From positions 1,303-65,302 of the forward strand of contig JADFUW010000002.1 in NCBI GenBank assembly GCA_015222205.1: 64,000 nt of DNA, in the 5' to 3' direction. The notes below the pieces were generated by a model. The model made no database searches. It was not told the DNA's origin and saw only the letters and a list, made by a program, of their open reading frames with translations. Below are positions 949-59,170 of this stretch, piece by piece (positions within the stretch are counted from its first letter, which is position 1; every line of letters starts with the position of its first letter). The stretch comes from Chloroflexota bacterium (lineage in GTDB: Bacteria > Chloroflexota > Dehalococcoidia > Dehalococcoidales > UBA5760). A program made the translations under genes and the position numbers.

Positions 949-3537
949 ATGAGAGAAGGTTTAACCCCTATCCGTCAGCAATATCTCAGGATAAAGAGGA
1001 ATTATCACGAGGCTATTGTCTTCTTCCGCCTGGGGGATTTCTACGAGACCTTTGATAAGGATGCTGAGCTTACCTCTCGGGAGCTGGATATTGTGCTGAC
1101 GTCCCGGGAGATGGGTAAGGGGCATCGGGTGCCTATGGCTGGTATTCCCTATCATGCCCTGGATAACTATCTGGCGAGGCTTATTAGTAGAGGCTATAAG
1201 GTTGCTATCTGTGAGCAGGTGACCAGGCCCGGTGAGACGAAGGGACTGGTTGAGCGTGGTGTGGTTCGAGTGGTAACGCCAGGCACGGTAATTGAGCCGG
1301 CTCTTCTTGACGGTAACGCCAATAATTATCTGGTCAGCCTCGTTTTAGGTGATGATGCGGCTGGTATAGCCTATGTTGATATAACCACCAGCGAGTTTGC
1401 TGTTACTCAACTGCCCCGGGAGCGGGCTAACGCTGAACTGGAGCGGCTTAAACCATCGGAGATTATTACGGCGGAGAGTGCTGAACTACCTGATTTAGAA
1501 TTAAAGGCTCCGCTAACCCGGCTTGAGGATTACTGCTTTGAGCTAGAGACGGCCCGCCAAACAGTGCTGGAGCATTTTGGCGTGGCTACCCTTGATGGCT
1601 ATGGCTGTAGTAACCTGCCCCTGGCGATAAGTGCTGCTGGGGCAATCATTCACTATCTTCAGGAAACACAGAAAGGGGTTCTGGGACAGCTAACCCGGCT
1701 TTCTACCTACTCCACTGGTTCATTTATGGCGCTGGATATGCAGACCCAGAGAAACCTGGAGCTATTCCAATCAAGCCGTCTGGGCACTGCTGAGGGCTCA
1801 CTACTATCGGTTATTGACCTGACCAAGACGCCTATGGGAAGTCGGCTATTAAAGAAGTGGCTGGGGCAACCCATACTTGACATAACGGAACTGACCAGGA
1901 GACAGGAGGCTATTGGCTGGTTCTTTGATAATACCCTGGCTCGCAACCAGACGGTTTCCCTGTTTAGCGAGGTGGCTGACCTGGAGCGGTTGATAAACCG
2001 GGTGAGGGGTGATGTGGTTAGTCCGCGTGAGCTAATAAGCCTGAAGCGCAGCCTTGAGGTTATTCCCAAGCTCATAGAGGTAATTACGGCTGGTAAAAGC
2101 AGTAATAGTATTAGCTGGCTCAAGGATAAGCTTAAGCCTCGTCAGGATGTAGTTGACCTGATTACTGAGGCAATAGAGGAGACACCGTCATCAGCTCTGG
2201 GGGAGGGTGGTGTGGTGAGAAAGGGTTTTTCTGAGGAACTGGATAGCCTTTGTCTGGCGTCTAGGAATGCCAAGCATTATCTGGCTAATCTGGAGCGTCA
2301 GGAGCGAGACAAAACGGGAATTAAATCCTTAAAGATAGGCTTTAACAATGTTTTTGGCTACTATATTGAGGTATCCAAAGCTAATCTCGGTCAGGTGCCG
2401 GAGCATTATATCAGAAAGCAGACACTGGTAGGGGCTGAGCGCTTCTTCACCCCGGAGCTAAAGGAGTATGAATCACTGGTTTTGAATGCCCGTGACAGGA
2501 TTAGCGAGCTTGAGTCTGAGCTGTTTCATCGGGTATGTCGCCAGATAGCTACTGCTGGCGAGCGCATCCTAGCCGTTGCCAATGCCCTGGCGAGCCTAGA
2601 TGTCTTCTCCAGCCTGGCTGAGGTGGCGGTGCGTTATGACTACACTAGGCCCAAGCTAACCACGGATAGTGAAGTGGCTATCACTCAGGGACGCCACCCG
2701 GTAGTTGAAAGGAGCTTGACCTATAAGGGCTTTGTGCCCAATGATGCTCATCTTTCCAATGGTGATGCCCAGCTTATTATCCTCACCGGGCCCAATATGT
2801 CAGGCAAGTCAACCTACTTGAGGCAGGTGGCGTTAATCGTCCTTCTGGCACAGACAGGCAGCTTTGTCCCCGCTGATGCGGCAACTATTGGCCTGGTGGA
2901 CCGTATCTTTACCCGGATTGGTGCCGGGGAAGATATTGCCGCCGGTCAGTCTACCTTTATGGTGGAGATGGTGGAGACGGCCAATATCTTAAATAACGCT
3001 ACCCCTCGCTCACTGATTATCCTGGATGAGATTGGGCGGGGCACCAGTACCTACGATGGGCTGTCCATTGCCCGGGCAGTCTGTGAGTATATCCATAATG
3101 CCTCCAGACTGGGGGCGAAAACCCTCTTTGCCACTCACTATCATGAGCTGGTTGAGCTGGCTAGTTTCCTGCCCCGGGTGAAAAACTTTAATGTGGCGGT
3201 AACCGAAGAAGGGGGTAGGGTGGTCTTCTTGTACAAGATTGTGCCGGGCGGGGTTGATAGGAGCTATGGTATCCACGTAGCGCAGCTAGCGGGCTTACCC
3301 AAATCGGTGGTGCACCGGGCACACGAGGTACTGGAGGAATTGGAGGAGGCTAGCCGAGCTACAGGGGCTAAGCCCTTACCCAAGAGGCGCGGTAAGGAGG
3401 TAGCACGGCAGCTAACATTCTTCGGGCAACAATCACCGGTGGCTGAAGAGCTAGAAAAGCTGGACATTAATTCCTTAACACCTCTGGAGGCTCTCACCAA
3501 GCTCTACGAACTGCAACAGAAGGCTAAGGAGGGGTAG
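949..3537 (+). CDS. mutS: DNA mismatch repair protein MutS
   Basis: 862-aa ORF. N-terminal mismatch-binding motif (TPIRQQYLRIKRNY..FFRLGDFYETF), Walker A GPNMSGKST and STFMVEM..DEIGRGTSTYDG are all typical MutS signatures. Confidence 0.97.
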   Translation: MREGLTPIRQQYLRIKRNYHEAIVFFRLGDFYETFDKDAELTSRELDIVLTSREMGKGHRVPMAGIPYHALDNYLARLISRGYKVAICEQVTRPGETKGLVERGVVRVVTPGTVIEPALLDGNANNYLVSLVLGDDAAGIAYVDITTSEFAVTQLPRERANAELERLKPSEIITAESAELPDLELKAPLTRLEDYCFELETARQTVLEHFGVATLDGYGCSNLPLAISAAGAIIHYLQETQKGVLGQLTRLSTYSTGSFMALDMQTQRNLELFQSSRLGTAEGSLLSVIDLTKTPMGSRLLKKWLGQPILDITELTRRQEAIGWFFDNTLARNQTVSLFSEVADLERLINRVRGDVVSPRELISLKRSLEVIPKLIEVITAGKSSNSISWLKDKLKPRQDVVDLITEAIEETPSSALGEGGVVRKGFSEELDSLCLASRNAKHYLANLERQERDKTGIKSLKIGFNNVFGYYIEVSKANLGQVPEHYIRKQTLVGAERFFTPELKEYESLVLNARDRISELESELFHRVCRQIATAGERILAVANALASLDVFSSLAEVAVRYDYTRPKLTTDSEVAITQGRHPVVERSLTYKGFVPNDAHLSNGDAQLIILTGPNMSGKSTYLRQVALIVLLAQTGSFVPADAATIGLVDRIFTRIGAGEDIAAGQSTFMVEMVETANILNNATPRSLIILDEIGRGTSTYDGLSIARAVCEYIHNASRLGAKTLFATHYHELVELASFLPRVKNFNVAVTEEGGRVVFLYKIVPGGVDRSYGIHVAQLAGLPKSVVHRAHEVLEELEEASRATGAKPLPKRRGKEVARQLTFFGQQSPVAEELEKLDINSLTPLEALTKLYELQQKAKEG

Positions 3538-3629
3538 GGGCGGGTTATTGTGCCACTAGAATTCTAGATTCTATAAAAATACATCAGCTCAGGCTGGCTA
3601 TAGAAAGGCGCAAGAAAAGGAGGTAAGAG

Positions 3630-4199
3630 GTGTCCCAGTTCAGATCAAAAGAAGTGGAGAGGGAAGCAGTACGAATGACCGCAGTCATGATGGCATCGAG
3701 TGCTAGGACGGCTCCCAAGGCTAGAGGTCTTGATGCTATAGAAACAATGATTGTCGATGGTAGTGACCTCGAACTTCTGGTAAGTGCTATGGAGGATAAG
3801 GCGAAAGAGCAACCACCCTACCTTTCTTCAATCTTTGACAGGGATGCTCGCAATGTCAGAAACTCCAGTTGTGTATTGTTAATAGGGGTTGTGGGTAACC
3901 CCAAGAAGATTGAGGAATCGTTAGACTGCGGTGCCTGCGGCTACAAAACGTGTAAGGATTTACTCAATGTGAGGAAGCGTGAGGGAAAGGACTTTAGTGG
4001 CCCTATTTGCATATTCCAAGCACTTGACTTAGGTATTGCTCTAGGTTCAGCCGTCAAACTGGCTAGCGGACTCAACGTCGACAACCGCATGATGTACACG
4101 ATTGGGGCGGCGGCGAAGAAATTGCACCTCTTGGATTCTGACATCGTTATTGGTATCCCGCTATCCGTATCCGGTAAGAATATCTATTTCGATAGGTGA
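3630..4199 (+). CDS. DUF2148-like protein (uncharacterised ferredoxin-domain family, COG4739-like)
   Basis: 189 aa, GTG start preceded by AAAGGAGG. ARTAPKARG, CGACGYKTC and GIPLSVSGKNIYFDR match my recollection of the DUF2148 family consensus. Sits between two copies of the mutS 3' end. Confidence 0.7.
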   Translation: MSQFRSKEVEREAVRMTAVMMASSARTAPKARGLDAIETMIVDGSDLELLVSAMEDKAKEQPPYLSSIFDRDARNVRNSSCVLLIGVVGNPKKIEESLDCGACGYKTCKDLLNVRKREGKDFSGPICIFQALDLGIALGSAVKLASGLNVDNRMMYTIGAAAKKLHLLDSDIVIGIPLSVSGKNIYFDR

Positions 4200-4242
4200 T
4201 AGGGCGTTATCGTCCCTACCAGAGAGTCACGGCTCTTTCGTG

Positions 4243-4362
4243 GTCTTTGGGCAAAAATCACCAATATTAGACGAGCTGGAGAAACTTGACATAAACTCAC
4301 TGACGCCCCTTGAGGCCCTCACCAAGCTCTACGAGCTGCAGAAGAAGGCAAGGGAGGGGTAG
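4243..4362 (+). pseudogene. orphan second copy of the mutS 3' end (39 codons + stop)
   Basis: Encodes VFGQKSPILDELEKLDINSLTPLEALTKLYELQKKAREG*, against FFGQQSPVAEELEKLDINSLTPLEALTKLYELQQKAKEG* at the mutS C-terminus (3418-3537). The alignment is gapless and codon-for-codon. No mutS body lies upstream of it. Confidence 0.85.
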
Positions 4363-4375
4363 GGGGGGATTATCG

Positions 4376-4798
4376 GTGACTGGAAGGAGGTGGCTAATTT
4401 TGGAGACTGGGAAATATCGCCTAGTAAAGCGAATGAGGTTGGCAGCGCGGATAATTGGTTTTGGTATGGTGGGGTTTGGTGGAACGATGCTGGTTGGTGA
4501 GGCGGTGAGTGAATATCTTCGGGAAGGCTGGGCAGTAATCACCGAGGTAACCCCGACAGACCCAGGGGTTCTACTAGTTGTGATTGGAGCAGTTGCCCTG
4601 GCGGGCTGTATTCTGTCACGGTGGCGGGAGCGACTGGCTGGCATATTACTGGTTTCCGTTGCTGCTGCACTGGGTGCCCACATTGCTACCTATGCCGGCA
4701 GAAATCATGCCCTGGTGTGGGCTATGGTGGGTCTGCCGTTTCTGGTTTCCGGGTTGCTGTTCCTTAACGCCTGGCGGCTTTCAAAGGAACTAACTTAA
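4376..4798 (+). CDS. small hypothetical integral membrane protein
   Basis: The track ORF 4310-4798 overlaps the mutS remnant. The likely start is GTG 4376 (G-rich SD-like run just upstream) or ATG 4433. It has 3-4 hydrophobic helices (IIGFGMVGFGGTMLVG, VLLVVIGAVALAGCIL, ILLVSVAAALGAHI, WAMVGLPFLVSGLLFL). Confidence 0.55.
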   Translation: MTGRRWLILETGKYRLVKRMRLAARIIGFGMVGFGGTMLVGEAVSEYLREGWAVITEVTPTDPGVLLVVIGAVALAGCILSRWRERLAGILLVSVAAALGAHIATYAGRNHALVWAMVGLPFLVSGLLFLNAWRLSKELT

Positions 4799-4870
4799 AC
4801 AGAATACGCGGTATGCGAATTATAAGAGAAGGTGGAGGGGAGGGGTGAGGATGCTGAGCCGTGTGATTCG

Positions 4871-6058
4871 TCACAATGTTGGAGACTCGAAGGAAATATT
4901 CAGGTCCCCTATTTGAATACCAGATGTGTCGCCGATATACAGTGGTAAAGGCAAGACATCTTTATGCATATTATCATATTGTTCTAGAACTTTTACTTTC
5001 AGTTCCATAAGTTCTGGGGTAAATGTAATGGCGAATTTACTATTCCTGATTAACTCGGCCTTTGAAGATCGGTCTTCTCTTTTCTTTGTCGTGTCCTCTA
5101 ATGAACTCTTTGCATGGTAGAACTGGGACCTAACACGCATATCTTCAATTTTTGCTTTGGCTTTCGGTATTTCCTCTAGCTCTTGTAGCTCTTTACTGAG
5201 CTTCTCTATCTCAATAGAGTAAGAATCAATTTCCTCCAATAGCTCATTGTATTTGGATTCTAGTCTCTTAATAATCACTTGCATATCTGTTAAACATGAC
5301 CTAAGTAATTCTCTAGTGTCGGCTAGCGAAAAGAATAGATATTCCCTCCGCTCTGGATGCCCGAAACCGGTAAACACTGTGTCATTTATGTCATCGTCTA
5401 AAAACCAATTATAGTCCTTCTTCTGATAGCCATTTATCTCTATCGAGCGTATAAACAAGCGTAGTGATATGAGTTCTTCACGTTGATATCCAGCCCTGTC
5501 TTCTTCAGTAATTTTTGCTGCGTCTTTTAGAGCCTTATCTAACTCAGCGGAAATATTTCGAGGCGTGTACTTAATAGTATCATGCGTTTGTATGTTGAAA
5601 GCTAATTCTTGTCCTTCCTTCTGCAAGGGGATTACATACTTGCCTAATGCAGTCATTAGGCCATATTCATAGTAGACATTTGGGTTAGGGATATTTACCT
5701 TCCTCCCGTTTATTAGTTCCATAGTATCATCCAGTATTACAAGGCAAAATTGCGATTCTATTATTTTCCCACATATTTTTGTACAAAATATGTCCTGTCC
5801 ATAAGCTCTCTCTTTGATTGCGATTACAGGTTCAATACCGATTTTTGTAAGTTTTTCAATAATTAGAGCGAGTATAGTTTCTACTTCTTCCTCAGATGGG
5901 CAAGCAACAAAGCATGATTTTGAGGCGCCAAGAAACTTCCCGCAAGAATGGTCTTTGCGAACAAAACATTTAGGGATCTCTCTGAATTGAGTTGATTGTT
6001 GCATTTCCGGAAAGCGTAAAAACCCTCTATTATATCTATAAAATCTGTCCATACTCAT
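4871..6058 (-). CDS. hypothetical protein: N-terminal TIR-like / nucleoside 2-deoxyribosyltransferase-like Rossmannoid domain + C-terminal coiled coil
   Basis: 395-aa ORF, AT-rich. Residues ~48-165 (SCFVACPSEEE..KIGIEPVIAI..QFCLVILDD..NPNVYYEYGLMTALGKYVIPLQKEG) follow the strand/helix pattern and the N-x-x-x-E-x-G-x(4)-GK-x-V-x-L motif of TIR-like (Cap12-type) and N-deoxyribosyltransferase-like domains as I recall them. Residues ~255-330 are a heptad-rich K/E/L coiled coil. Confidence 0.45.
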   Translation of the reverse strand: MSMDRFYRYNRGFLRFPEMQQSTQFREIPKCFVRKDHSCGKFLGASKSCFVACPSEEEVETILALIIEKLTKIGIEPVIAIKERAYGQDIFCTKICGKIIESQFCLVILDDTMELINGRKVNIPNPNVYYEYGLMTALGKYVIPLQKEGQELAFNIQTHDTIKYTPRNISAELDKALKDAAKITEEDRAGYQREELISLRLFIRSIEINGYQKKDYNWFLDDDINDTVFTGFGHPERREYLFFSLADTRELLRSCLTDMQVIIKRLESKYNELLEEIDSYSIEIEKLSKELQELEEIPKAKAKIEDMRVRSQFYHAKSSLEDTTKKREDRSSKAELIRNSKFAITFTPELMELKVKVLEQYDNMHKDVLPLPLYIGDTSGIQIGDLNISFESPTL

Positions 6059-6093
6059 AGTAATATCTCACTAATTTTAGTCCTCTTTAATTT

Positions 6094-6102
6094 ATTATAT
6101 CA
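6094..6102 (-). promoter_or_regulatory. extended -10 element (TGATATAAT) for CDS 4871-6058
   Basis: The minus strand reads TGTGATATAAT ~35 nt upstream of the ATG at 6058. A second TGTGGTATAAG motif lies further upstream, inside repeat copy B. Confidence 0.35.
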
Positions 6103-6104
6103 CA

Positions 6105-6235
6105 TGCCATTGTTTACATGCTTATACCACACACCTCACTCACCAAAGGGGTTAAAGGGGCGTTAGACCCTTAAAGAACAGCTTCCCCCTCTCCTTATCA
6201 AGGAGAGGGGGACTAAGGGGGTAAGGTTACAATGT
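6105..6235. repeat. composite palindromic intergenic repeat, copy B
   Basis: Perfect 13-bp inverted repeat TCCCCCTCTCCTT-ATC-AAGGAGAGGGGGA (6184-6212). Its tail CTAAGGGGGTAAGGTTACAAT resembles the tails of copies C and D. The left flank is shared with copy A. Confidence 0.8.
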
Positions 6236-6296
6236 TGAGGGGAACTATATCCTTATTGGTGGGTTAGGGGATATAATAGGCTGGAGGGTATTAAAT

Positions 6297-7733
6297 ATGG
6301 AGCCTGCCAAGTTTTTTGAGAGACGAACCAAGATAGTTTGTACCATCGGTCCGGCGACTGCGTCGGTGGCTATGATTGAACGGCTGATTACGGCTGGTAT
6401 GAATGTTGCCAGGTTTAATTTATCTCATGGTACTGCTGGTGAGCACGCCCGTTATATCCGAATCGTAAGGAGGTTGAGTCGGCGTCTGGGGATACCGGTG
6501 GGGGTATTGATTGATTTGCCGGGGCCCAAATACCGAATTGGAAAATTGAAGGGTAGCCGGGCTATTTTGGAAAAGGGTGCCCCGGTAATACTTACCACAA
6601 GGGCAATAGAGGGTGATGCCAATTTAGTGCCGGTGAGCCTGCCCTATCTGGCGCAGGATGTGAAGGTAGAGGATACGATGCTTCTTGCTGACGGAGTGAT
6701 AGAGCTTAAGGTGCAGGCGATAGAGGGCGATGAGGTAAACTGCCGGGTAAAGGTTGGTGGTTTGCTTACTGAGGGTTGTGGGTTGGTGGTGCCTGGAATG
6801 CGTAGTTCTGTTCCTTTTATTACTGATACCCTGCGGCAGTATATTCATTTTGCTGTTGAGCAGCAACCTGATTACCTGGCGCTCTCATTTGTGGCTGCTG
6901 ATGAGGATATCACCAGTGTTAGAGCCATCCTGCAGGAGGCTGGTGTTGATATACCCATTATTGCCAAGATAGAGCGGCGGCAGGTGGTGGATACCTTTGA
7001 TAAGGTACTCTCGGTGAGTGATGGTGTTATGGTAGCGAGGGGAGACCTCGGTGTAGATATTCCCCTGGAGAAGGTACCGCTGGTACAGAAGGAGATTATC
7101 AAGAAGTGTAACTGGGTGGGTAAGCCGGTGATTACTGCTACTGAGATGCTGGAGTCAATGGTGAAATCAATCCGTCCCACGCGGGCTGAGGCTGCTGATG
7201 TAGCTAATGCTATATTTGACGGGAGTGATGCCATTATGCTTTCATCGGAAACCTCCGTGGGTAAACATCCGGTGCGAGCAGTGACCCTGATGTCCCGTAT
7301 TGCCCGGGAGGTGGAGAGAAAATTGCCCTATCAGCAAATGTTGACGGAAAGGGGCAGGTGGCTTGAGCATAAGACAGATGAGTTAATAAGCTATAATGCC
7401 TGCTACACAGCGTATAACCTGGGGGCGGTAGCCATAGTGGCCTTTACCCAGTCCGGCAGCACGGCGGGTCGGGTATCAAAATACCGCCCTAGAGTACCCA
7501 TCTTAGCCATAACTTCTAGTAATGTTGTATCGGGCCGGTTACTCCTGCGCTGGGGGGTGTATCCCTTCCGGGTAACTGGGTTATCGTCGGTGGATGAGCT
7601 ATTTGATGCGGGGGCCAAGCTTGTTAAAGAACTTGGGTTAGCTAGAGCGGGTGACCTGATAGTAATTACCGGCGGTGTTCCTATCGGCTTAATCGGGTCG
7701 ACCAATCTGCTGAAGGTGGAAGAGATTAAATAG
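6297..7733 (+). CDS. pyk: pyruvate kinase
   Basis: 478 aa. RRTKIVCTIGPA, NVARFNLSHG and MVARGDLGV..ATEMLESM are hallmark pyruvate kinase motifs. SD GGAGGG lies upstream. Confidence 0.96.
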   Translation: MEPAKFFERRTKIVCTIGPATASVAMIERLITAGMNVARFNLSHGTAGEHARYIRIVRRLSRRLGIPVGVLIDLPGPKYRIGKLKGSRAILEKGAPVILTTRAIEGDANLVPVSLPYLAQDVKVEDTMLLADGVIELKVQAIEGDEVNCRVKVGGLLTEGCGLVVPGMRSSVPFITDTLRQYIHFAVEQQPDYLALSFVAADEDITSVRAILQEAGVDIPIIAKIERRQVVDTFDKVLSVSDGVMVARGDLGVDIPLEKVPLVQKEIIKKCNWVGKPVITATEMLESMVKSIRPTRAEAADVANAIFDGSDAIMLSSETSVGKHPVRAVTLMSRIAREVERKLPYQQMLTERGRWLEHKTDELISYNACYTAYNLGAVAIVAFTQSGSTAGRVSKYRPRVPILAITSSNVVSGRLLLRWGVYPFRVTGLSSVDELFDAGAKLVKELGLARAGDLIVITGGVPIGLIGSTNLLKVEEIK

Positions 7734-7770: not shown

Positions 7771-8535
7771 CTATTCACCGTTTTTAACGACATAGTTTCT
7801 CAGCGTGCCTATCCCCTCTATCTTTATCTCTACGGTATCACCGGGGTACATGGGCCCGATGCCACTGGGGGTGCCGGTGGCGATAACATCACCGGGCAAG
7901 AGTGTCATGATGTGAGATATAAAGCTCACCAGTTCGGGGATGGGGAAGATGAGGTCGCTGGTAGTGCCTCGTTGCTTGAGTTCCCCGTTAAGATAGGCTT
8001 CCAGATTAGCATTACCGGGGTCAAGCTCGGTCTCAACGCAGGGACCAATGACAGAGAAGGTGTCAAAGCCCTTGGCCCGTGTCCACTGACCGTCCTTTTT
8101 CTGAAGGTCACGTGCCGTAACATCATTAAAGCAGGTGTAGCCCAGCACATAGTCCAGTGCCCTTTCTACAGGTACCCGGTATGCCCGGGTCTTTATCACG
8201 ACCCCCAGCTCTGCCTCATAGTCAACCCGCTCTGAAGAGCCGGGATAAACGATGTTATCCTCGGGGCCGATTACTGATGTGGACGGCTTCATAAAAAGCA
8301 GGGGTTCGGGGGGGATGGGTGACTTGAACTCTTTGGCATGGCTGTAGTAGTTAAGGCCCAGCGCCACTATTTTGGAGGGTGTGCACGGGGGGAGGAGTTT
8401 GACCTCGTTAAGATTATAATGACTATTAGAATGCTTGAGCTGACGGTAGGGGGTACCCGTAGCGCCCTGAATGACTTTACCATTTAATATTCCGTATTCG
8501 GCCTTTTTGCCGGTGGTAAAACATATAATTTTCAT
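7771..8535 (-). CDS. fumarylacetoacetate hydrolase (FAH) family protein
   Basis: 254 aa. DYEAELGVVI, GYTCFNDVTARD and PGDVIATGTPSGIG are typical of the FAH / 2-keto-4-pentenoate hydratase family. Confidence 0.88.
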   Translation of the reverse strand: MKIICFTTGKKAEYGILNGKVIQGATGTPYRQLKHSNSHYNLNEVKLLPPCTPSKIVALGLNYYSHAKEFKSPIPPEPLLFMKPSTSVIGPEDNIVYPGSSERVDYEAELGVVIKTRAYRVPVERALDYVLGYTCFNDVTARDLQKKDGQWTRAKGFDTFSVIGPCVETELDPGNANLEAYLNGELKQRGTTSDLIFPIPELVSFISHIMTLLPGDVIATGTPSGIGPMYPGDTVEIKIEGIGTLRNYVVKNGE

Positions 8536-8594
8536 GACTAACGCTAAGTTTACCAGTGCCTCTCGCGGATTTCAAACGGCAGGGTATCGGCTGG

Positions 8595-9158
8595 TTAAAA
8601 GTGGGGTTTGCAGAGAATCTCCTTGACCTTGAGGTCAAAGAAGTTACGGGTGTTTACCGGGCTGAGCACCAGTGCCGTATCAGCGCCGTGGCCGGTACCG
8701 GCTACGGAGATAATATCCTCGTCGGTGCGTACCAGTCCACTGTCGGCTGCCATCAGGGTTATCTCACAGGCGGCTTTTATCCCCTGACCAAAAATACGCA
8801 GCGTATCGGCGATTATCATGCCGAGGACATAGGTGTTATATTTGGTGCGCATAGCAGCACTCAGCCCGCTGAAGGCATGTGCCGTGGTTAATATTATGCC
8901 CCCCTTGTTTTCCACTATGTGCCGGTTCTCCTCCGTGAATTCTTGAATGTTGGGTCCACGCATGCCGGTAACATGGCTGACCACAATAACCCTTAGTCCT
9001 TGAAAAGCATCCATAGCCTTGACGGCAGTATCACCGGTTGTGGAGGCTACTAATATCTTCTTGATACCGAGTTCTCGTGCCCGCTCTCTGGTGATGCTGA
9101 GGGCTGTCTCGGTGGTCTCAGCGCCGGGATGCTCAAAATAGACTGTCTTTAATTCCAC
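8595..9158 (-). CDS. pyruvate kinase alpha/beta (C-terminal) domain-like protein
   Basis: 187 aa. YFEHPGAETTE..ILVASTTGDTA..FGQGIKAACEITLMAADSGL..ILCKP matches the stand-alone pyruvate-kinase C-terminal-domain-like family as I recall it. Confidence 0.7.
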   Translation of the reverse strand: MELKTVYFEHPGAETTETALSITRERARELGIKKILVASTTGDTAVKAMDAFQGLRVIVVSHVTGMRGPNIQEFTEENRHIVENKGGIILTTAHAFSGLSAAMRTKYNTYVLGMIIADTLRIFGQGIKAACEITLMAADSGLVRTDEDIISVAGTGHGADTALVLSPVNTRNFFDLKVKEILCKPHF

Positions 9159-9204
9159 TTTCGGTTCAAACCTCTCCCTTGATGTGTTGATTACTTATTT
9201 ACCT

Positions 9205-9228
9205 ATTCTACTACTAATTCTACTACTA
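9205..9228 (+). repeat. perfect 12-bp tandem direct repeat (ATTCTACTACTA x2) in the arg operon control region
   Basis: Read directly at 9205-9216 and 9217-9228, in the divergent intergenic region upstream of argJ. Confidence 0.9.
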
Positions 9229-9291
9229 AAGGTTAATCTTTGCCATAAAAACTCATTGCCTAGCTATAGCGACTATGTTATATTTTATTCA

Positions 9292-10509
9292 GTGGAAGGT
9301 GAGATTTCTTTTGTTGCCTCGGGTACGGTTACTTCCCCGAGAGGGTTTCGGGCGGGGGCGACGTATGCTGGGGTAAAGAAAAAGGGGAAGGGTGTCCTTG
9401 ACCTTGGCATCCTCCTGTCTGAAGTGCCCTGTGTGACGGAGGGCTTATTTACTGCTAATCGGATTAAGGCAGCCCCGGTAATCCTGTCGCAGCAACGTTT
9501 ACCGTCGGGGGAGGTGAGGGCAGTGGTGGTAAATAGCGGTTGTGCCAATGCTGTTGTTGGTGAGACGGGGCTTAAGGATGCTGCCAGGATGGCAGCTCTA
9601 GCCGCCCAGAATATAGGGGTATCGCCGGGGGCTGTTTTAGTGGCTAGTACCGGGGTGATTGGGAGGCGGCTACCGATGGAGCTTATAGAGACGGGCATAA
9701 GGCAGGCTACTGTTTCTAGGGATGGTGGTCATAAGCTGGCGAGGGCAATAATGACTACTGATACTGTTCCTAAAGAGGCGGCGGTAGCGGTCAGCGTTGA
9801 TAGGGGTGAGTTTATTATCGGTGGGATAGCTAAAGGCTCGGGGATGATTCACCCCAATCTGGCCACTTTCCTTTGTTTTCTGACCACTGATGCCGCCGTG
9901 GGGCAGGATTTTCTCAGGCTATCGCTAAAAAAGGCGGTGGATGTTTCTTTTAACATGGTTTCTATTGATGGTGATACCAGCCCCAATGATACGGTGCTGG
10001 TAATGGCTAACGGGCTGGCGGGTGGTAAGCCTGTTTTACCAGGGAGCAGGCGGGCTGGGGCTTTTCAGCAAGCCCTTAACCAGCTCTGTATCTACTTGGC
10101 TAAGGATATTGCCCGCGATGGCGAGGGGGCGAGTAGGCTTATTGAGGTTGCGGTTAGTGGGGCGCCCGGTATTGCTGAAGCCAGATTAGCAGCCAGGACA
10201 ATAGTAGGTTCCCCCCTGGTGAAGGCGGCAATACATGGTAGTGACCCCAATTGGGGGCGAGTTATAGCGGCGGTAGGGCGAAGTGGGGTAGAGGTGGTGG
10301 AATCTAAGATTAGCATCTATATTGGCAATATCTGTCTGGTGAAGTCTGGCTGTCCGGTGGCTTTTGATAGGGAGGGGGTGATAAGGTTATTGCGTGATAG
10401 TAAGGTGCTGATAAACCTAGAGCTTAACTTGGGCACGGCGACGGCTACTGCCTGGGGTTGTGACCTCTCGGAGGAGTATGTAACCATTAATAGTGAGTAC
10501 ACAACTTGA
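9292..10509 (+). CDS. argJ: bifunctional glutamate N-acetyltransferase / amino-acid acetyltransferase (ornithine acetyltransferase) ArgJ
   Basis: TSPRGFRAGATYAGVKK.., ATFLCFLTTDA (self-cleavage site region) and SEEYVTINSEYTT are ArgJ hallmarks. The track start 9184 adds an implausible hydrophobic leader, so GTG 9292 is proposed. The start remains uncertain. Confidence 0.9.
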   Translation: MEGEISFVASGTVTSPRGFRAGATYAGVKKKGKGVLDLGILLSEVPCVTEGLFTANRIKAAPVILSQQRLPSGEVRAVVVNSGCANAVVGETGLKDAARMAALAAQNIGVSPGAVLVASTGVIGRRLPMELIETGIRQATVSRDGGHKLARAIMTTDTVPKEAAVAVSVDRGEFIIGGIAKGSGMIHPNLATFLCFLTTDAAVGQDFLRLSLKKAVDVSFNMVSIDGDTSPNDTVLVMANGLAGGKPVLPGSRRAGAFQQALNQLCIYLAKDIARDGEGASRLIEVAVSGAPGIAEARLAARTIVGSPLVKAAIHGSDPNWGRVIAAVGRSGVEVVESKISIYIGNICLVKSGCPVAFDREGVIRLLRDSKVLINLELNLGTATATAWGCDLSEEYVTINSEYTT

Positions 10510-26894: not shown

Positions 26895-26942
26895 TTATAT
26901 CTCCGGTCTCCTCTTATGCCACTCGGTTGCCTGCTGGTAGGC
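26895..26942 (-). pseudogene. orphan second copy of the gatA 3' end (15 codons + stop)
   Basis: The minus strand encodes [15 protein letters not shown], identical to the gatA C-terminus (27088-27135). 5 of 48 nt differ and all are silent (including TAG vs TAA). Confidence 0.85.
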
Positions 26943-26975
26943 GATTTTCATTTTTCACCTTTTACCAAGTAACTA

Positions 26976-27004
26976 TTGACAAATGTCTGATTATCTGATA
27001 GTCT
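26976..27004 (+). promoter_or_regulatory. promoter-like element (TTGACA-17 nt-TAGTCT)
   Basis: TTGACA at 26976-26981, a 17-nt spacer, and a weak -10 TAGTCT at 26999-27004. It lies ~30 nt upstream of the terminator hairpin. Confidence 0.25.
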
Positions 27005-27030
27005 TAAGGCTAGAATCACGACGAAAAGCA

Positions 27031-27069
27031 CCCTGTGAGGTTCCGTCCTTACAGGGGGTTTTTCTTTTT
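27031..27069. terminator. bidirectional intrinsic terminator (gatCA on minus strand; strong U-tract on plus strand)
   Basis: 10-bp stem CCCTGTGAGG / CCTTACAGGG with a 6-nt loop. It is followed by GGTTTTTCTTTTT on the plus strand. On the minus strand the hairpin is followed by TGCTTTTCG. Confidence 0.7.
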
Positions 27070-27087
27070 ATACTCCAATTTTCCACT

Positions 27088-28557
27088 CTAAATTTCCGGT
27101 CTCCTCTTGTGCCACTCGGTTGCTTGCTGGTAGGCGTAGGCAATTTTTAAGATAGTTTCCTCAGCAAAGGGCTTGCCGATAATCTGCATGCCTATGGGCA
27201 GCCCGTCGGCAAAGCCGGCCGGGATGGAGATAGCCGGCACTCCGGCGATATTTATCGGCAGGGTGCAGATATCGCTTAAATACATCTGAAGGGGGTCGTC
27301 TACCTTCTCCCCGATTTTGAAGGGGACGGTGGGGGAGGTGGGGGTTATCAGGGCATCAAATTTGCTAAAAGCCTGGTCAAACTCCTGCCGTATTAAGGTG
27401 CGCACCTTTTGGGCTTTTAGGTACCAGGCATCATAGTAGCCGGCGGACAGGGCATAGGTTCCCAGCATAATACGCCTTTTCACCTCAGGTCCAAAGCCAT
27501 ACTGGCGGGTCTTTTCCAGCGCCTCCCACATATTGTCGGTCTCCTGATAGGAGAAGCCATACTTTACCCCGTCGTAGCGAGCCAGGTTGGCTGAAGCCTC
27601 TGATGGGGCGATGATATAGTATGCCGCCAGGGCATAGGGGGTTGATGGTAGTGATACTCCCCACTCTATCTTGGCCCCCAGTTCTTTAAGTTTAGCGATA
27701 GCGGCTCGTATGGCTGTTTCTACTTCTGTCTGCATTCCCTCAACGAAATACTCCTTGGGGACACCGAGGCGAAGGCCATTAAGGTTGCCGGTTAGGCACT
27801 GAGTGTAATCGGGCGTAGGCTCGGGAACCGAGGTAGAATCTCTTGGGTCATAGCCAGCGATGGCGTTTAATACTAGGGCACAATCAGTAACATCCTGGGT
27901 TAGCGGTCCAATCTGGTCAAGGGAGCTGGCAAAGGCGACCAGACCGTATCGGCTCACCCTGCCGTAGGTAGGTTTGAGGCCGGTAACACTGCAGAAGCCA
28001 GCCGGCTGGCGAACACTGCCGCCGGTATCCGAGCCCAGGGCATAGATGGCTTCGCCAGAGGCTACCCCCACGGCTGAACCCCCACTACTTCCGCCAGGCA
28101 CGCGGCTCAAGTCCCAGGGGTTATGGGTGGGGAAGAAGGCGGAGTTCTCGGTAGACGAACCCATAGCAAATTCATCCATGTTTGCCTTACCTATAATTAC
28201 GGGGTGATGCCCGTTTAACCTTTCGACTACAGTGGCGTCATAGGGTGGCACAAAATTTTCCAGCATCTTTGATGAGCAGGTGGTTTTTATCCCTTTGGTG
28301 CACATGTTGTCCTTGATTAGCACCGGGATGCCGGTAAGTGGGTTAGTATTGCCAGTCGCAATAAGCTCGTCAGCCTCTTGAGCTTGCTTTAGTGCTAGCT
28401 CATCAGTAACAGTAACCAGGGCACTAATCTTTGGCTCGATTTCATGTATACGCGCTAGATGGGCTTTGGTTAGTTCAACTGAGGAAAGTTGCTTGGTTTT
28501 AAGTAGCTGATGTGCCTCATGGATTGTCAAATGGTTATGATTAGTTATATTACTCAC
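27088..28557 (-). CDS. gatA: Asp-tRNA(Asn)/Glu-tRNA(Gln) amidotransferase subunit A
   Basis: 489 aa. Amidase signature [20 protein letters not shown]. Located downstream of gatC. Confidence 0.97.
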
Positions 28558-41297: not shown

Positions 41298-42013
41298 AGC
41301 AGTTTAGCGGTTTCCCGGCTAAGATGCAGTTTATCCCCCTGCCCAATCTTTTCTTTAGTGCACTCTTGCCGCAAATCAACGATATGGCTGAGCTAAAGAC
41401 AACTCTATATATCTTAGCCACTCTTTACCGCAAGCGGGGCTACCCTCGCTTTGTCAGTTATAGAGAGCTATTAAGCAGCACCAGCCTGATATGTAGCCTT
41501 AAAGAAATAGCTGAGCCACCCGAAAAGTTATTGCGTAAAGCCCTGGAGATGGCGGCCAAGCGGGGCACTGTCCTTCATATAGTAGTGGATAGGGATGGGG
41601 TGTCTGAGGATATTTATTTTTTGAATACTGAGGAAAGTAGACAGGCGGTAGCTAAGATTGAGGGTGGTGAGCTTATCCTCCCTGGACTGGAAACTGCGGG
41701 GCGAACTTATCTTGGTGCCGGGGTTGGTGAGCAGTCTAACATCTTCACCCTCTACGAGCAGAATATTGGTATGCTAACCCCGATGATTGCTGAGGAGCTA
41801 CGGGAGGCGGAGAAGCTTTATCCTGCAGCCTGGATTAAGGATGCTATCAAGGAGGCAGTTAACCAGAGTAAACGCAAATGGAGCTATATTTCGGCAATAT
41901 TAGAGCGCTGGTCATCAGAGGGTAGGAGCGATGGAACCTATAGGCGAGATTCTGAAAAGACAGACCCGGATAAATACATCAAGGGCAAGTATGGGCACAT
42001 GGTCCGGCGCTAG
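41294..42013 (+). CDS. DnaD-domain (DnaB_2-type) replication protein
   Basis: 239 aa. ATGA overlap with the dnaB stop. The C-terminal NIFTLYEQNIGMLTPMIAEEL...WIKDAIKEAVNQSKRKWSYISAILERW is the DnaD C-terminal domain pattern. Confidence 0.75.
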   Translation: MKQFSGFPAKMQFIPLPNLFFSALLPQINDMAELKTTLYILATLYRKRGYPRFVSYRELLSSTSLICSLKEIAEPPEKLLRKALEMAAKRGTVLHIVVDRDGVSEDIYFLNTEESRQAVAKIEGGELILPGLETAGRTYLGAGVGEQSNIFTLYEQNIGMLTPMIAEELREAEKLYPAAWIKDAIKEAVNQSKRKWSYISAILERWSSEGRSDGTYRRDSEKTDPDKYIKGKYGHMVRR

Positions 42014-43340
42014 CGAGACTGAAGAAGACCTCCCAGGTGCAAACTGCCCTATTTGTGGCGGGGCGGGGTTTGTTCACCCTCTTCTCCCCACCGGGAAGGC
42101 CGATTTTAGTCGGGTTATCCCCTGCCGTTGTAGCCGGGAAGCCTTGGATAAGGAGCGCCAGACTCACTTGCTCAGTTACAGCAACCTGGGAGCACTGACC
42201 CGCTTCACTTTTGCCAATCTATTACCCCAAGGGAGAAGTGGGGACCCGATAAACCAGGAGCAGTTTACCCGTGCTCATGAAGCTGCCAAAGCCTTTGCTA
42301 GTCAGCCCGAGGGATGGCTAGTCCTGACTGGCCCCAGTAGCTGTGGTAAAACGCATCTAGCGGCGGCTATTGCTAACGAATGTATTAGCCGAGGTCAGCT
42401 AGCCTTTTTTATCTCTGCGCCTGACCTCCTAGACCGTCTGCGCTCTGCCTTCAGCCCCAATAGTGAAATGCCCTATGACGAATTCTTTGACCGGGTGCGT
42501 AATGCTCCGCTATTGGTTTTAGATGATTTAGGGGCTCAAACCAGTACCACTTGGGCCAAGGAAAAATTGGACCAACTGCTAAATTATCGCTTTAATAGCC
42601 AGTTACCCACGGTGATTGTTACTATTGCTCTTGTTGAACAGCTTGAGGAGCGAATACGCACTCGCCTGACCGACCCTGATTTGTGTCATATATGTGTCGT
42701 TGAGGCAGAGCCAGTCCTGTCAGAATATAGCTGGGGTCCAGAGTTCGAGCTACAAAAAACTATGACCTTTAAAAGCTTTGACCGTCGGCGGCTTAATCTG
42801 CCACCAGAGCAGCGCGAGAACCTGGAGTCAGCATTTGATTTGGCTTTTAACTTTGCCAAATCACCTGAGGGTTGGGTAGTATTTATGGGCGTTACCGGCT
42901 GTGGTAAAACGCATCTAGCGGCGGCTATTGTTAACTATTGTTATCAAGCCCAAAAGCCTGCCCTGTTCGTGGTGGTCCCTGAGTTCCTTGACCATTTGCG
43001 TTCCACTTTCAGCCCGGAGAGCAAGGTTTCCTATGACCAGCTGTTTGAAAGAATAAAGACGGCGCCGTTACTCGTTCTGGATGACTTTGGTGAGCAGTCA
43101 ACCACACCCTGGGCACAAGAAAAGCTCTATCAGGTTATTAACTACCGCTATAACGCGCGATTGGCGACAGTAATTACTGCCCGCGGTTCACTAGATGAGA
43201 TCGATAGCCCTATCAGTTCCCGGCTAGCAGACCCTAAAATAAGCACCCCATTTAATATCATCGCTCCTGATTATCGGGGTGATTTACAGTCCAGCCGGAG
43301 GAAAGTATCCCATGGTGGTAGGAAAAGGCGCTGGGATTAG
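41991..43340 (+). CDS. tandem-duplicated DnaC/IstB-like AAA+ helicase-loader protein with N-terminal zinc ribbon
   Basis: Two consecutive DnaC-like modules, each with Walker A (GPSSCGKTHLAAAI / GVTGCGKTHLAAAI) and Walker B (LLVLDDLG / LLVLDDFG). They are preceded by CPICGG...CRC. The start is ATG 41991 or 41931. Confidence 0.8.
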   Translation: MGTWSGASETEEDLPGANCPICGGAGFVHPLLPTGKADFSRVIPCRCSREALDKERQTHLLSYSNLGALTRFTFANLLPQGRSGDPINQEQFTRAHEAAKAFASQPEGWLVLTGPSSCGKTHLAAAIANECISRGQLAFFISAPDLLDRLRSAFSPNSEMPYDEFFDRVRNAPLLVLDDLGAQTSTTWAKEKLDQLLNYRFNSQLPTVIVTIALVEQLEERIRTRLTDPDLCHICVVEAEPVLSEYSWGPEFELQKTMTFKSFDRRRLNLPPEQRENLESAFDLAFNFAKSPEGWVVFMGVTGCGKTHLAAAIVNYCYQAQKPALFVVVPEFLDHLRSTFSPESKVSYDQLFERIKTAPLLVLDDFGEQSTTPWAQEKLYQVINYRYNARLATVITARGSLDEIDSPISSRLADPKISTPFNIIAPDYRGDLQSSRRKVSHGGRKRRWD

Positions 43341-43461
43341 GAAGCCATAAGCCAGGCTTGTATACCCAGAGAGTTTTTAGTAAAATGGGTAAACCTACCT
43401 GTGGGAAGAAGCTTTTCGAACAAGATACTTAAGCCTGTTTGTGGAAAGAGAGCTTATAAAC

Positions 43462-43965
43462 ATGGTAAATCAGTCAGTCCTAGTATTAAATCAGAGCTAT
43501 GAGCCACTCAATATATGTCTAGCCCGGCGAGCAGTAGTGCTGGTTTATCAAGGCAAGGCTGAGATGTTAGAAAACGGTGCTGGCTTTATCCAGTCAATCA
43601 GTTGTAGCTTTCCCCTTCCCTCAGTAATACGGCTACACCGTATGGTTAAACGCCCCCGACCTAGGAGAAGGCTGACTCGCCTGGAGGTTTTCAGCCGTGA
43701 CCAATACACCTGCCAGTATTGTGGCCGGGAAAGTCGACAGCTTACATTGGACCATGTTATCCCTCGCTACCGAGGTGGTGAGCAGACCTGGGAAAATGTG
43801 GTTAGTGCTTGTATCTCCTGTAATCGGCGCAAAGCCGGCAGGACGCCTGAAGAGGCCGGGATGAAATTAAGACACCGTCCGTCCCCTCCGCGAGATAACC
43901 TTCTTTTTTATATCCCTCTCCCCCTCAAAACTCAGGTTCAGTGGCAAAAGTATCTCCCTCATTGA
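43462..43965 (+). CDS. HNH endonuclease
   Basis: VLVLNQSYEPL...RRAVVLVYQGKAE at the N-terminus and CQYCG...LTLDHVIPRYRGG..TWENVVSACISCNRRK (HNH with zinc-finger cysteines). The start is ATG 43462 (the track uses GTG 43441). Confidence 0.88.
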   Translation: MVNQSVLVLNQSYEPLNICLARRAVVLVYQGKAEMLENGAGFIQSISCSFPLPSVIRLHRMVKRPRPRRRLTRLEVFSRDQYTCQYCGRESRQLTLDHVIPRYRGGEQTWENVVSACISCNRRKAGRTPEEAGMKLRHRPSPPRDNLLFYIPLPLKTQVQWQKYLPH

Positions 43966-53621: not shown

Positions 53622-53629
53622 GGTGAAAT

Positions 53630-54841
53630 ATGGATTATGCTTATGTAGCCTATACTAGAGATAGGAGATTGGTTAAGGGTAAGCTCTCTGCTACCAGCGA
53701 GGAAGTGGCGGTTGACATATTGGGTTATGGTGGCTATCAAGTGCTTAGTCTCAAGCAATTTATCCCCTTTTTTGATAAGAGGAAGCTAGCCAGTCGCTTT
53801 TCTCAGCTAAAACCGACAGAAATAGTAATGTTTTCCCGTCAGCTAGCCTTATTGCTTGAAGCAGGTATTGACATTGTTACTTCTTTGGGGCTGTTACAGA
53901 ACCAGACGACCAGTCAAACCCTGAAACGGGTGATTGGTGAGGTGGTTGCTGATATTCGTGGCGGTAGCGCGCTGTCAGTGGCGCTAAGTAAACATCCCCG
54001 AGTTTTCTCGCAACTATACCATCGGGCAATATCTGCTGGTGAGCAAGGTGGTAATCTGGAAGTGGTGCTGAGGCAAATGGCTGACCATATAGAGAAAGGA
54101 GTTACCACCGAAAAGAAGGTGAAGGGAGCCCTGACCTATCCTATTATCGTTGGCGTGGTAGCTATTGTCGTGGTAGGTATACTAGTCTCCTATGTTTTGC
54201 CCAGCTTCACCTCTTTATACGCTGCATTTGATGTTGAATTACCCTTACCAACGAGGATAGTTATGGGGATTAGTGACTGGTTTAGCCAGTACGGACTCTA
54301 TCTTGGGTTGGGGATAGCCGCTATCTTTGGCTCTATCTTTGCTTACGTCAAAACCCCGGCCGGAAAGTATCAATGGGATAGCTTATTACTCAGGTTACCT
54401 GTATTTGGGCGTATTAACCTCCTTAATCAGCTTTCTCGTTGTTGTCGAACAATGGCGCTGTTATTTAAGGTCGGCGTGCCTGTACCGGAGATTATGGTAG
54501 TAGCCATTTATGGCACTACTAATAAGGTTGTGGCTGAAGCTTTGACTGAGATTCAGGGTGAGCTATTAAAGGGCGAAGGCTTATCCCAACCCATGTCAAG
54601 GAGAAAGCTATTTCTACCCTTGATGGTGCAGATGGTCGGGGTCGGTGAGGAAACCGGCAACCTTGATGCCACACTAACCACTGTAGCCCAGAGCTACGAA
54701 GCCGAGGCTGAGGATAAGACCAGTGCTGCTGTTGCCCTTATTCAACCAGCTATGACCATAATTATTGGAGCCGTAGTTGGCTTTATTGCCCTGTCTCTGA
54801 TTTCAGCTATGTATTCTATCTATGGTGAGGTAAGTTTCTAG
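53630..54841 (+). CDS. pilC: type II secretion/type IV pilus platform protein PilC/GspF family
   Basis: 403 aa. Two T2SSF repeats and three TM segments. Immediately after pilB. Confidence 0.92.
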   Translation: MDYAYVAYTRDRRLVKGKLSATSEEVAVDILGYGGYQVLSLKQFIPFFDKRKLASRFSQLKPTEIVMFSRQLALLLEAGIDIVTSLGLLQNQTTSQTLKRVIGEVVADIRGGSALSVALSKHPRVFSQLYHRAISAGEQGGNLEVVLRQMADHIEKGVTTEKKVKGALTYPIIVGVVAIVVVGILVSYVLPSFTSLYAAFDVELPLPTRIVMGISDWFSQYGLYLGLGIAAIFGSIFAYVKTPAGKYQWDSLLLRLPVFGRINLLNQLSRCCRTMALLFKVGVPVPEIMVVAIYGTTNKVVAEALTEIQGELLKGEGLSQPMSRRKLFLPLMVQMVGVGEETGNLDATLTTVAQSYEAEAEDKTSAAVALIQPAMTIIIGAVVGFIALSLISAMYSIYGEVSF

Positions 54842-54853
54842 GAGCTAGAGTCA

Positions 54854-55824: not shown

Positions 55825-55841
55825 CAAACGAGTATAGTGTG

Positions 55842-56987: not shown

Positions 56988-57001
56988 AGTAGGAGTGGTT
57001 A

Positions 57002-57682: not shown

Positions 57683-57684
57683 TT

Positions 57685-59166: not shown

Positions 59167-59170
59167 CGAT

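Follow-up and report, generated by a model that had tools for sequence, protein, structure and literature searches.

Duplicated mutS termini flank a single-gene insertion in uncultured Dehalococcoidales and may mark imported DNA that spreads by homologous recombination

How does the end of a housekeeping gene come to be present twice within one kilobase, with a single gene between the two ends and with differences that fall mainly on silent sites? The question is raised by a locus in a 64,000-nucleotide stretch of DNA from a Chloroflexota bacterium of the order Dehalococcoidales (positions 1,303 to 65,302 of contig JADFUW010000002.1, assembly GCA_015222205.1), which as a whole is called the window below. 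In this window the last 39 codons and the stop codon of mutS (copy 1) recur downstream (copy 2), on the far side of a gene of the DUF2148 family. The original prediction, made from the letters alone, took this arrangement for the footprint of an element that integrates into the 3' end of a gene and brings a replacement end with it. Having examined the locus and its relatives, we lean, with a confidence slightly better than even, toward a different account, in which imported DNA left the duplication as a scar and homologous recombination now spreads it, with no need of a dedicated recombinase.

The segments 3418-3537 and 4243-4362 align codon for codon without a gap, and 28 of their 120 nucleotides (nt) differ. 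Our base-by-base comparison agrees with the earlier hand count, including its 18 synonymous differences and both of the peptides it quoted: changes are exclusively synonymous in 17 codons (18 nt) and non-synonymous in seven, and across codons 11-33 a recount again found all 15 nucleotide differences to be silent. An independent repeat search returned the pair 3419-3548 and 4244-4373 at 78% identity, with similarity running ~11-15 nt beyond both stops, where ~15 nt had been estimated. By the Nei-Gojobori method the number of synonymous differences (Sd) is 19.2 and that of non-synonymous differences (Nd) 8.8, giving proportions per site of 0.71 (pS) and 0.10 (pN) and a ratio of non-synonymous to synonymous divergence (dN/dS) of ~0.05, not near 1. 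In tblastn, the search that the original prediction had proposed for 4243-4362, the copy 2 peptide matches the MutS C-termini of other species significantly (1e-16 at locus L001, 6e-16 at L002). With a hidden Markov model (HMM) of the MutS C-terminus, copy 2 scores 73 bits (E 2e-20) and the real end 69 bits, the score of copy 2 being in part a matter of construction because the alignment behind the HMM contained both window copies. Only one gene, DUF2148, lies in the 705 nt that separate the copies (3538-4242); it has its own Shine-Dalgarno sequence and a GTG start, as had been read from the letters, the start being ATG in relatives. The mutS 3' end accordingly stands as a direct repeat on both sides of the insert while MutS itself is intact, and the protein is 100% identical to P0121, annotated as MutS in a Chloroflexi metagenome-assembled genome (MAG); look-ups of the window's MutS and pyruvate kinase (Pyk) by exact sequence gave no match.

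A tandem or target-site duplication made in situ would give copies that are identical at birth and diverge without regard to codon position, and a dN/dS of 0.05 is not the trace that such a process leaves. The ratio implies instead that both copies were working MutS ends while they diverged, in different lineages, and that at least one of them was imported. The original prediction had drawn the same conclusion from the silent bias, and it is borne out by the dN/dS value together with the matches across lineages. We hold with high confidence that 4243-4362 was originally the 3' end of a mutS gene and is now displaced and non-coding, and equally that the inserted segment, comprising a replacement mutS end and one DUF2148 gene, entered ~39 codons ahead of the mutS stop and pushed the old end downstream.

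Is this a single, recent insertion private to the present genome? We compared loci L001-L162, which are species-representative genome loci and metagenome contigs, the latter found via DUF2148 and MutS proteins. In the closest species-representative genomes MutS is 66-75% identical to the window protein, and in none of the 80 best species-representative mutS loci does DUF2148, or the DUF7670 or pyruvate kinase gene (pyk) found further downstream in the window, lie within 6 kb of mutS. The order mutS end, DUF2148, second mutS end is found again in L081, L090, L091, L092, L095, L097, L101, L146, L148 and L161, and L099 shares the architecture with copy 2 nearly lost. The duplication is thus carried by at least 10 independent contigs, which come from independent studies and assemblers in ENA, JGI and NCBI and belong to one clade of uncultured Dehalococcoidales, within which MutS identity ranges from 82 to 89%. 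Copy 2 has a sharp left edge that is shared by every clade member, which argues for a single origin of the duplication, and the insertion is evidently not private to one genome. Uninterrupted sites exist in relatives as well: L158-L160 and L001-L004 have one mutS end and no DUF2148. In a tree of MutS the clade is star-like, and DUF2148-positive and DUF2148-negative lineages are interleaved.

Across the clade, copy 2 is preserved to very different degrees. It is pristine in the window and in L092, carries three damaging substitutions in L148 and the same three plus a 32-nt deletion of the tail in L081, is frameshifted with deletions of 14 and 3 nt in L090, L091 and L095, has lost ~30 internal codons in L097 and L101, and is almost erased in L099. 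In L092 the pristine copy follows immediately on a stop codon, and its reading frame offers no ATG, GTG or TTG. It is untranslatable yet pristine, and its state therefore does not result from selection on a peptide. Between copy 2 of the window and copy 2 of L092 the differences are almost only silent (dN/dS 0.04); since copy 2 is untranslated, each of the two must derive recently from a functional mutS end. Judged from these sequence comparisons, copy 2 is a relic and not a gene.

The way in which identity changes along the locus is consistent with exchange between the two positions. Between the window and L161 the mutS body is ~85% identical and copy 1 82%; in 3528-4262, which covers the end of copy 1, spacer 1, DUF2148, spacer 2 and the first 20 nt of copy 2, only 9 of 735 nt differ; and the remainder of copy 2 after 4262 is 73% identical. 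Compared with L081, 1 of 603 nt differs in 3660-4262, and the DUF7670 gene is 81.5% identical. The DUF2148 gene is 99.3-99.5% identical at the nucleotide level to those of L081 and L161 and the whole shared block 98.8-99.8%, with mutS differing by ~15%. In comparison with L081, L148 and L161 alike, near-identity stops at 4262 and the first run of differences begins at 4263, beyond which copy 2 of the window is 73-80% identical to copy 2 of L161, L081 and L148 (54% for L081, a value depressed by the 32-nt deletion). The middle of the window copy 2 (4275-4315) is almost identical to the functional copy 1 of L161, and positions 3459-3518 of the window copy 1 are 96.7% identical to copy 1 of L081 and only 82% to that of L161; the tails have therefore been shuffled between the copy 1 and copy 2 positions. 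L090, L091 and L095 share one common decayed copy 2 and diverge completely from its last ~25 nt onward, each with its own version of the tail end, followed by three unrelated downstream regions.

Counted along the repeat, the breakpoints fall at or before position 20 (window copy 2), at ~95-100 (L090, L091 and L095), at ~102-110 (copy 1 of L161) and, in L081, inside DUF2148. One fixed crossover position at every junction, the common core expected of an integrative element, is not what we find, although later patches of homologous recombination could have blurred an originally fixed core. The varying positions indicate homologous rather than fixed-core site-specific recombination, and the combination of mosaic identity, variable breakpoints and a lack of mobility genes is that of a flexible region driven by homologous recombination. 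A simple one-step history by a single Campbell crossover, under which copy 2 of L161 should equal copy 1 of the window at repeat positions 21-42, was rejected (18 of 22 positions identical).

The relic described so far is not the last in the series. DUF7670 orthologues lie 3' of copy 2 in L081 (79% identical at the amino acid (aa) level), L148, L091, L097, L101, L099 and L146, and downstream of this gene nhmmer detects a further mutS-tail relic, copy 3, with significance in three relatives (L081 1321-1364, 8e-6; L148 715-745, 3e-4; L099 2854-2896, 1e-3); that of the window was recognised only via synteny with these. Copy 1, DUF2148, copy 2, DUF7670 and copy 3 hence form tandem repeat-bounded units without recombination genes, as in an accretion array, and we consider with high confidence that the locus is the first unit of an array consisting of mutS with copy 1, DUF2148, copy 2, DUF7670, the copy 3 relic and strain-specific genes, which occupies a gene-flux hotspot bounded by mutS and a conserved fumarylacetoacetate-hydrolase-family (FAH) gene. 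Copy 3 is more decayed than copy 2, an order that fits successive additions at the functional mutS end.

Nor is the duplication of a terminus confined to this clade or to mutS. The last 19 codons and the stop of gatA, in the same window, are repeated 139 nt downstream. Over 54 aligned nt the two differ at six sites, each of them a third codon position, and the relic has a 6-nt deletion (AY) besides; no gene lies in the insert, which does contain a terminator-like hairpin. In L162, a GatA relative, the relic is missing and other genes lie downstream. Termini other than that of mutS can thus be duplicated with purely silent divergence, and the presence of the gatA case in this window speaks against a system dedicated to mutS. 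In L027, an Anaerolineae MAG, the 3' end of its own mutS has been duplicated independently (8437-9544, dN/dS 0.20) around a toxin-antitoxin-like pair, an 88-aa protein and a DUF3368 PIN-like protein, and there copy 2 begins with ATG. L027 was the only case in a self-search of 72 genome loci for second mutS tails; weak matches in L005, L009 and L050 proved to be noise on inspection. Among other repeat families of the window, D2, D3 and D5 are internal repeats within single open reading frames (ORFs), and D6-D8 look like chance matches.

The original prediction had noted that no recombinase is present in the window, and our searches agree. Pfam found no integrase, resolvase or transposase among window ORFs of at least 150 aa between 7.7 and 63.4 kb, and no recombinase among mutS, DUF2148, the copy 2 ORF, DUF7670, the 395-aa ORF (orf395) and pyk; what the scans did identify were housekeeping genes, a type IV pilus cluster and an HNH protein. 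In phmmer, XerD and Hin seeds gave nothing in six-frame ORFs of at least 100 aa from the window and loci L001-L161, which include L027, a search that is insensitive outside the window since it used two seeds only and since metagenome contig flanks are mostly short. A tyrosine or serine integrase encoded by an element next to an attachment site was accordingly found neither in the window nor in the mutS-linked loci or L027. Nor did a cognate element with an integrase at the same site turn up in a shallow sampling of 80 genome loci (within 6 kb of mutS), 13 related metagenome loci and the viral contigs. A scan of viral contigs with the MutS C-terminus alignment gave no isolated mutS-end mimic, and one full-length mutS on a contig that is doubtfully viral.

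How might such an array arise and persist? The mechanism we propose, with moderate confidence as a whole, begins with a first duplication that would have arisen once, when DNA from a relative was imported through a homologous crossover in mutS on the left and, on the right, a non-homologous or microhomology-mediated join just upstream of the recipient's own mutS tail. This first join was possibly an instance of homology-facilitated illegitimate recombination or a Campbell-type insertion of a circularised fragment. From then on, the repeated mutS tails would act as built-in homology arms: copy 1 with the mutS body would pair with the mutS of a recipient, and copy 2 with the recipient's own functional mutS tail, such that ordinary RecA-type recombination could knock the cassette into related genomes or swap the content downstream of copy 2. 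Each such event would install a fresh copy 2 tail taken from a functional mutS. If so, the refreshing of the tails accounts for the apparent purifying selection on an untranslated copy 2 and for its decay wherever refreshing has not taken place. The type IV pilus genes at 51210-60253 could, as far as sequence can tell, support the uptake of DNA.

We need to consider whether the arrangement could be accounted for otherwise. The window comes from a metagenome-assembled contig, in which the mutS ends of two strains could have been joined in tandem, but two copies with a complete gene between them recur in the same order in at least 10 contigs, obtained in independent studies with independent assemblers, and we give an assembly artefact almost no credence. 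Copy 2 might also be functional, either as a translated MutS C-terminal mini-protein of ~40 aa, starting at the in-frame GTG at 4240, or as a cis-regulatory element under purifying selection. Its sequence is consensus-like, its frame is open from 4093 in the window and the L027 copy starts with ATG, yet the pristine copy of L092 has no start codon and a stop directly upstream, no Rfam match was found in 3300-6400, and promoter and terminator counts are at chance level. Copy 2 is moreover frameshifted, truncated or lost in L081, L090, L091, L095, L097, L101 and L099, which largely refutes a function; the decayed sister copies and the missing start codon of L092 led us to reject the translated mini-gene, and function of any kind seems very improbable. 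A third scenario is that the copies arose in situ and were at first identical, and that mutS including copy 1 was replaced later, leaving copy 2 as the fossil of a former allele. Different histories of gene and cassette are indeed suggested by the identities to L161, ~85% for mutS and ~99% for the cassette, and the identity between copies 1 and 2, 91% in L092 and 76% in the window, suggests different times since their last homogenisation. Against this, the window copy 2 shows no neutral decay although those of sister lineages visibly do, the dN/dS of 0.04 between copy 2 orthologues calls for recent functional ends rather than an old fossil, and a breakpoint inside copy 2 is not predicted, which makes allele replacement after an in-situ origin improbable as the main explanation.

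Closest to the original prediction is the view that the locus is a remnant of site-specific integrative elements, with an integrase acting at the 3' region of mutS on an attachment site (attP) that mimics the mutS end, in the manner of e14 at icd and ICESt3 at fda, copies 1, 2 and 3 built up by accretion, and the integrase lost or supplied in trans, leaving one-gene units like the cis-mobilisable elements (CIMEs) of other bacteria. The layout is what such elements leave (attL, cargo, attR, with the target gene preserved), at least three repeats stand in tandem and relatives have empty sites; this part of the original prediction stands. Dehalococcoides, besides, accretes islands and possible cis-mobilisable elements at the direct repeats of ssrA (PMC3146451), and clades of proteobacterial integrases that target mutS exist (PMC7192596, PMC2612704). 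The main support, in our opinion, is the similar left edge of the independent event in L027. The role of an integrase is where the evidence turns the other way: the 64-kb window, ~12 related loci and L027 all failed to yield a tyrosine or serine recombinase, the boundaries of the shared blocks lie at several positions of the repeat, the viral contigs scanned hold no isolated mutS-end mimic, the cargo consists of ordinary single genes with their own ribosome-binding sites, and the gatA duplication, with its gene-less insert of 139 nt, is hard to assign to a mutS-specific integrase. We therefore prefer homologous recombination of imported ends, on account of the varying breakpoints, the refreshed tails, the gatA case and the failure to find an integrase, and regard the integrase mechanism as less likely, though still plausible.

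Homologous recombination of imported ends has its own difficulties. Neither a donor junction nor a microhomology could be identified, and the origin event is one that we infer and do not observe. The left edges of copy 2 in the window and in the independent L027 both lie just after a clamp-binding-type motif, within ~2-10 codons of each other, which hints at a preferred, possibly enzyme-defined site. The right-hand breakpoint of the window lies inside an identical stretch of 14-20 nt, short for RecA unless heteroduplex repair set the boundary. A fixed-core integrase followed by later patches of homologous recombination could produce the same mosaic, and integrases outside the window were sought with two insensitive seeds among metagenome flanks that are mostly short. 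Metagenome assemblies may, in addition, be chimeras of strains, though only within truly shared sequence. Finally, the organisms are uncultured, and as a possible route of DNA entry only the type IV pilus genes were seen.

The features of the locus and of the gatA terminus are collected in Table 1.

Table 1. Coordinates of the duplicated termini, their cargo and the flanking features in the window
Feature	Position	Strand	Remarks
mutS	949..3537	+	full length, 862 aa; Pfam MutS_I to MutS_V; conserved left flank of gene-flux hotspot
Copy 1	3418..3548	+	functional last 39 codons and stop of mutS with ~11 nt of conserved post-stop sequence; ancestry differs from that of copy 2
Spacer 1	3538..3629	+	holds the GGAGG ribosome-binding site of DUF2148; in the block 98-99% common to L161
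DUF2148 (ferredoxin-like) gene	3630..4199	+	single-gene cargo; Pfam PF09918, 6e-32
Spacer 2	4200..4242	+	between the DUF2148 stop and copy 2; the same in L081 and L148 and conserved throughout the clade
Head of copy 2	4243..4262	+	GTCTTTGGGCAAAAATCACC; travels with the cassette; recombination breakpoint at its 3' edge
Rest of copy 2	4263..4373	+	displaced, untranslated mutS terminus with stop and post-stop sequence; pristine in this genome
DUF7670 membrane-protein gene	4400..4798	+	TTG start after GGAGG; second array unit; Pfam PF24709, 8e-8
Copy 3 (tentative)	4810..4848	+	heavily decayed mutS-tail relic 3' of DUF7670; on its own not significant
Strain-specific gene, 395 aa	4871..6058	-	weak TIR-like (CAP12/Pycsar) and coiled-coil matches; variable hotspot content
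Conserved hairpin-containing sequence	6140..6235		right edge of hotspot; terminator-like hairpin 6184-6212
FAH (fumarylacetoacetate-hydrolase-family) gene	7771..8535	-	conserved right flank; Pfam
gatA terminus duplication	26895..27147	-	gatA end 27088-27147, relic 26895-26948; 139-nt gene-less insert

The cargo has a history of its own. DUF2148 proteins are 79-83% identical between sub-lineages of the clade. The closest homologues outside the mutS context (L082-L085 and L088, 76-84% identity) lie between dinB or a PALP-enzyme gene and a clpB/clpC-like gene, with unusually long intergenic gaps of 260-680 nt, and relative to these copies the mutS-linked ones are not clearly monophyletic. No flanking repeats of the upstream gene's end were found at the DUF2148 loci in the dinB/PALP-clp context; DUF2148 is therefore not generally a terminus-duplicating cassette. 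Within the clade, L097 and L101 have lost spacer 1, with the DUF2148 ribosome-binding site joined straight to the mutS tail; in these two (380-520 of L097 and 4877-5020 of L101) the deletion includes the mutS stop, and mutS runs ~12 extra codons into the start region of DUF2148. A separate change is seen in L081 (1-110), where the mutS stop TAG has become AAG and MutS is 11 residues longer.

Beyond the last relic the contents of the locus vary from strain to strain. The gene at this position is different in each lineage, L081, L090, L091, L092 and L095 among them. The L092 equivalent of the 395-aa gene is a PADLOC candidate defence gene (PDC-S19, 4e-77); a description of the region as a defence island in general was judged not to be justified, this being the only strong PADLOC match among the variable genes. 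FAH is the syntenic right neighbour in L001, L158, L159 and L160, which have a single mutS end and unrelated single genes between mutS and FAH (MutS of L158-L160 84% identical), and the contents of the interval differ between the window, L001, L158 and L160, as expected of a hotspot. The comparison of relatives' loci that the original prediction had called for thus turned up both the empty sites, in L158-L160, and other genes at the same position. The hairpin sequence abuts FAH in L158 and L160, and in the window a full pyruvate kinase gene (6297-7733) intervenes; a protein with a PK_C domain only is encoded at 8595-9158, likewise in relatives. A scan for promoters and terminators gave counts no higher than in shuffled sequence; its one useful product was the hairpin at 6184-6212, which served to mark synteny.

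Elsewhere in the window, the type IV pilus-like cluster includes PilC, PilM/N and a PilT-like ATPase, and its PilB-like ATPase (51210-53621) has an N-terminal Mrr_cat restriction-endonuclease domain, an unusual fusion. A DnaC/IstB-like ORF with two AAA modules (41931-43340), downstream of dnaB and a DnaD-like gene, contains an internal 91-nt repeat (42293-42383 and 42851-42941, 75% identity) and is followed by an HNH endonuclease gene (43441-43965).

It is worthwhile to place these observations among known systems. In homology-facilitated illegitimate recombination, known from the transformation of Acinetobacter and Streptococcus pneumoniae, a one-sided homologous anchor combined with an illegitimate join adds foreign DNA. 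Such a process would account for how the mutS and gatA duplications both began, although in experiments it usually deletes recipient DNA and does not duplicate a terminus. Comparable repeat-bounded elements at the 3' end of a gene are the CIMEs and the integrative element ICESt at fda in Streptococcus thermophilus. A protein-coding terminus, the target named in the original prediction, is not new as such. In the classic case, e14 (and phage 21) is inserted in the 3' end of E. coli icd, supplying an alternative end with mostly silent differences and leaving the icdC pseudogene downstream, and recombination between icd and icdC yields chimeric but functional genes (PMC13626634); long blocks of direct repeats have been noted at icd (PMC7192596). 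The mutS locus resembles e14 and icd in that the 3' end of a housekeeping gene is targeted, a replacement end is supplied and the displaced end is kept downstream. Unlike e14, a 15-kb element with its own integrase and SOS-induced excision, it holds one ordinary gene, has no integrase that we could find, shows varying breakpoints and has been subject to exchange throughout a clade.

Closer in taxonomy are the ssrA islands of Dehalococcoides, arrays of units bounded by direct repeats of the 3' end of a single-copy essential gene, some of the units being without integration genes (PMC3146451). They share with the present locus the class Dehalococcoidia and the array of repeat-bounded units; their repeats, however, are 20 bp long with a defined insertion point and a serine-integrase module, DsiB, whereas here the repeats are ~120 nt of coding sequence with silent divergence and no such module was detected. 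In the minimal mobile elements of Neisseria, different cassettes between the same conserved flanks are exchanged by homologous recombination (PMC3787668, PMC3082526). The exchange of cassettes without element-encoded mobility functions is common to both systems, but a duplication of the flank has not been described for Neisseria, and here the duplicated terminus forms an internal, portable homology arm and leaves datable relics. Integrases that target mutS have been described in Burkholderia and other proteobacteria (PMC2612704, PMC7192596), where they act on the 5' or middle part of the gene, make 15-bp repeats and possibly inactivate it; the present insertion differs in targeting the 3' end and preserving MutS. 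What appears new here is the combination of single-gene units for which no recombinase was found, a clade-wide array of displaced termini in graded decay, and evidence that the termini are substrates of recombination.

Let us finally consider what these duplicated termini would mean for gene flux in Chloroflexota. They may represent a general and so far undescribed way of moving genes without a recombinase, in which a cassette is flanked by two diverged copies of the last ~40 codons of a universally conserved gene and, with these as homology arms, could enter that gene's end in any related genome, or bring in whatever cargo lies downstream, by ordinary homologous recombination, with the mutS array, L027 and gatA as three instances; we offer this generalisation tentatively, as a possibility that falls well short of even chance. 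Under recombinase-free movement of this kind each event would regenerate the duplication and leave a datable series of displaced termini (copy 2, copy 3 and so on). The displaced termini are sequence fossils that record an earlier allele of an essential gene and give the direction and relative age of gene flux in organisms that cannot be cultured. Island finders that need an integrase or a tRNA would miss such events, and yet the pattern is one for which whole genomes are easily screened: the terminal piece of a conserved gene, present again a few kb away at most and with silent differences. Turnover of mutS alleles affects the mutation rate and the barrier to recombination, and imports of 3' ends may be linked to replacement of the mutS allele. 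Should the repeated termini indeed work as portable arms of homology, accessory genes, candidate defence genes included, could cross a divergence of ~15% without integrases or transposases.

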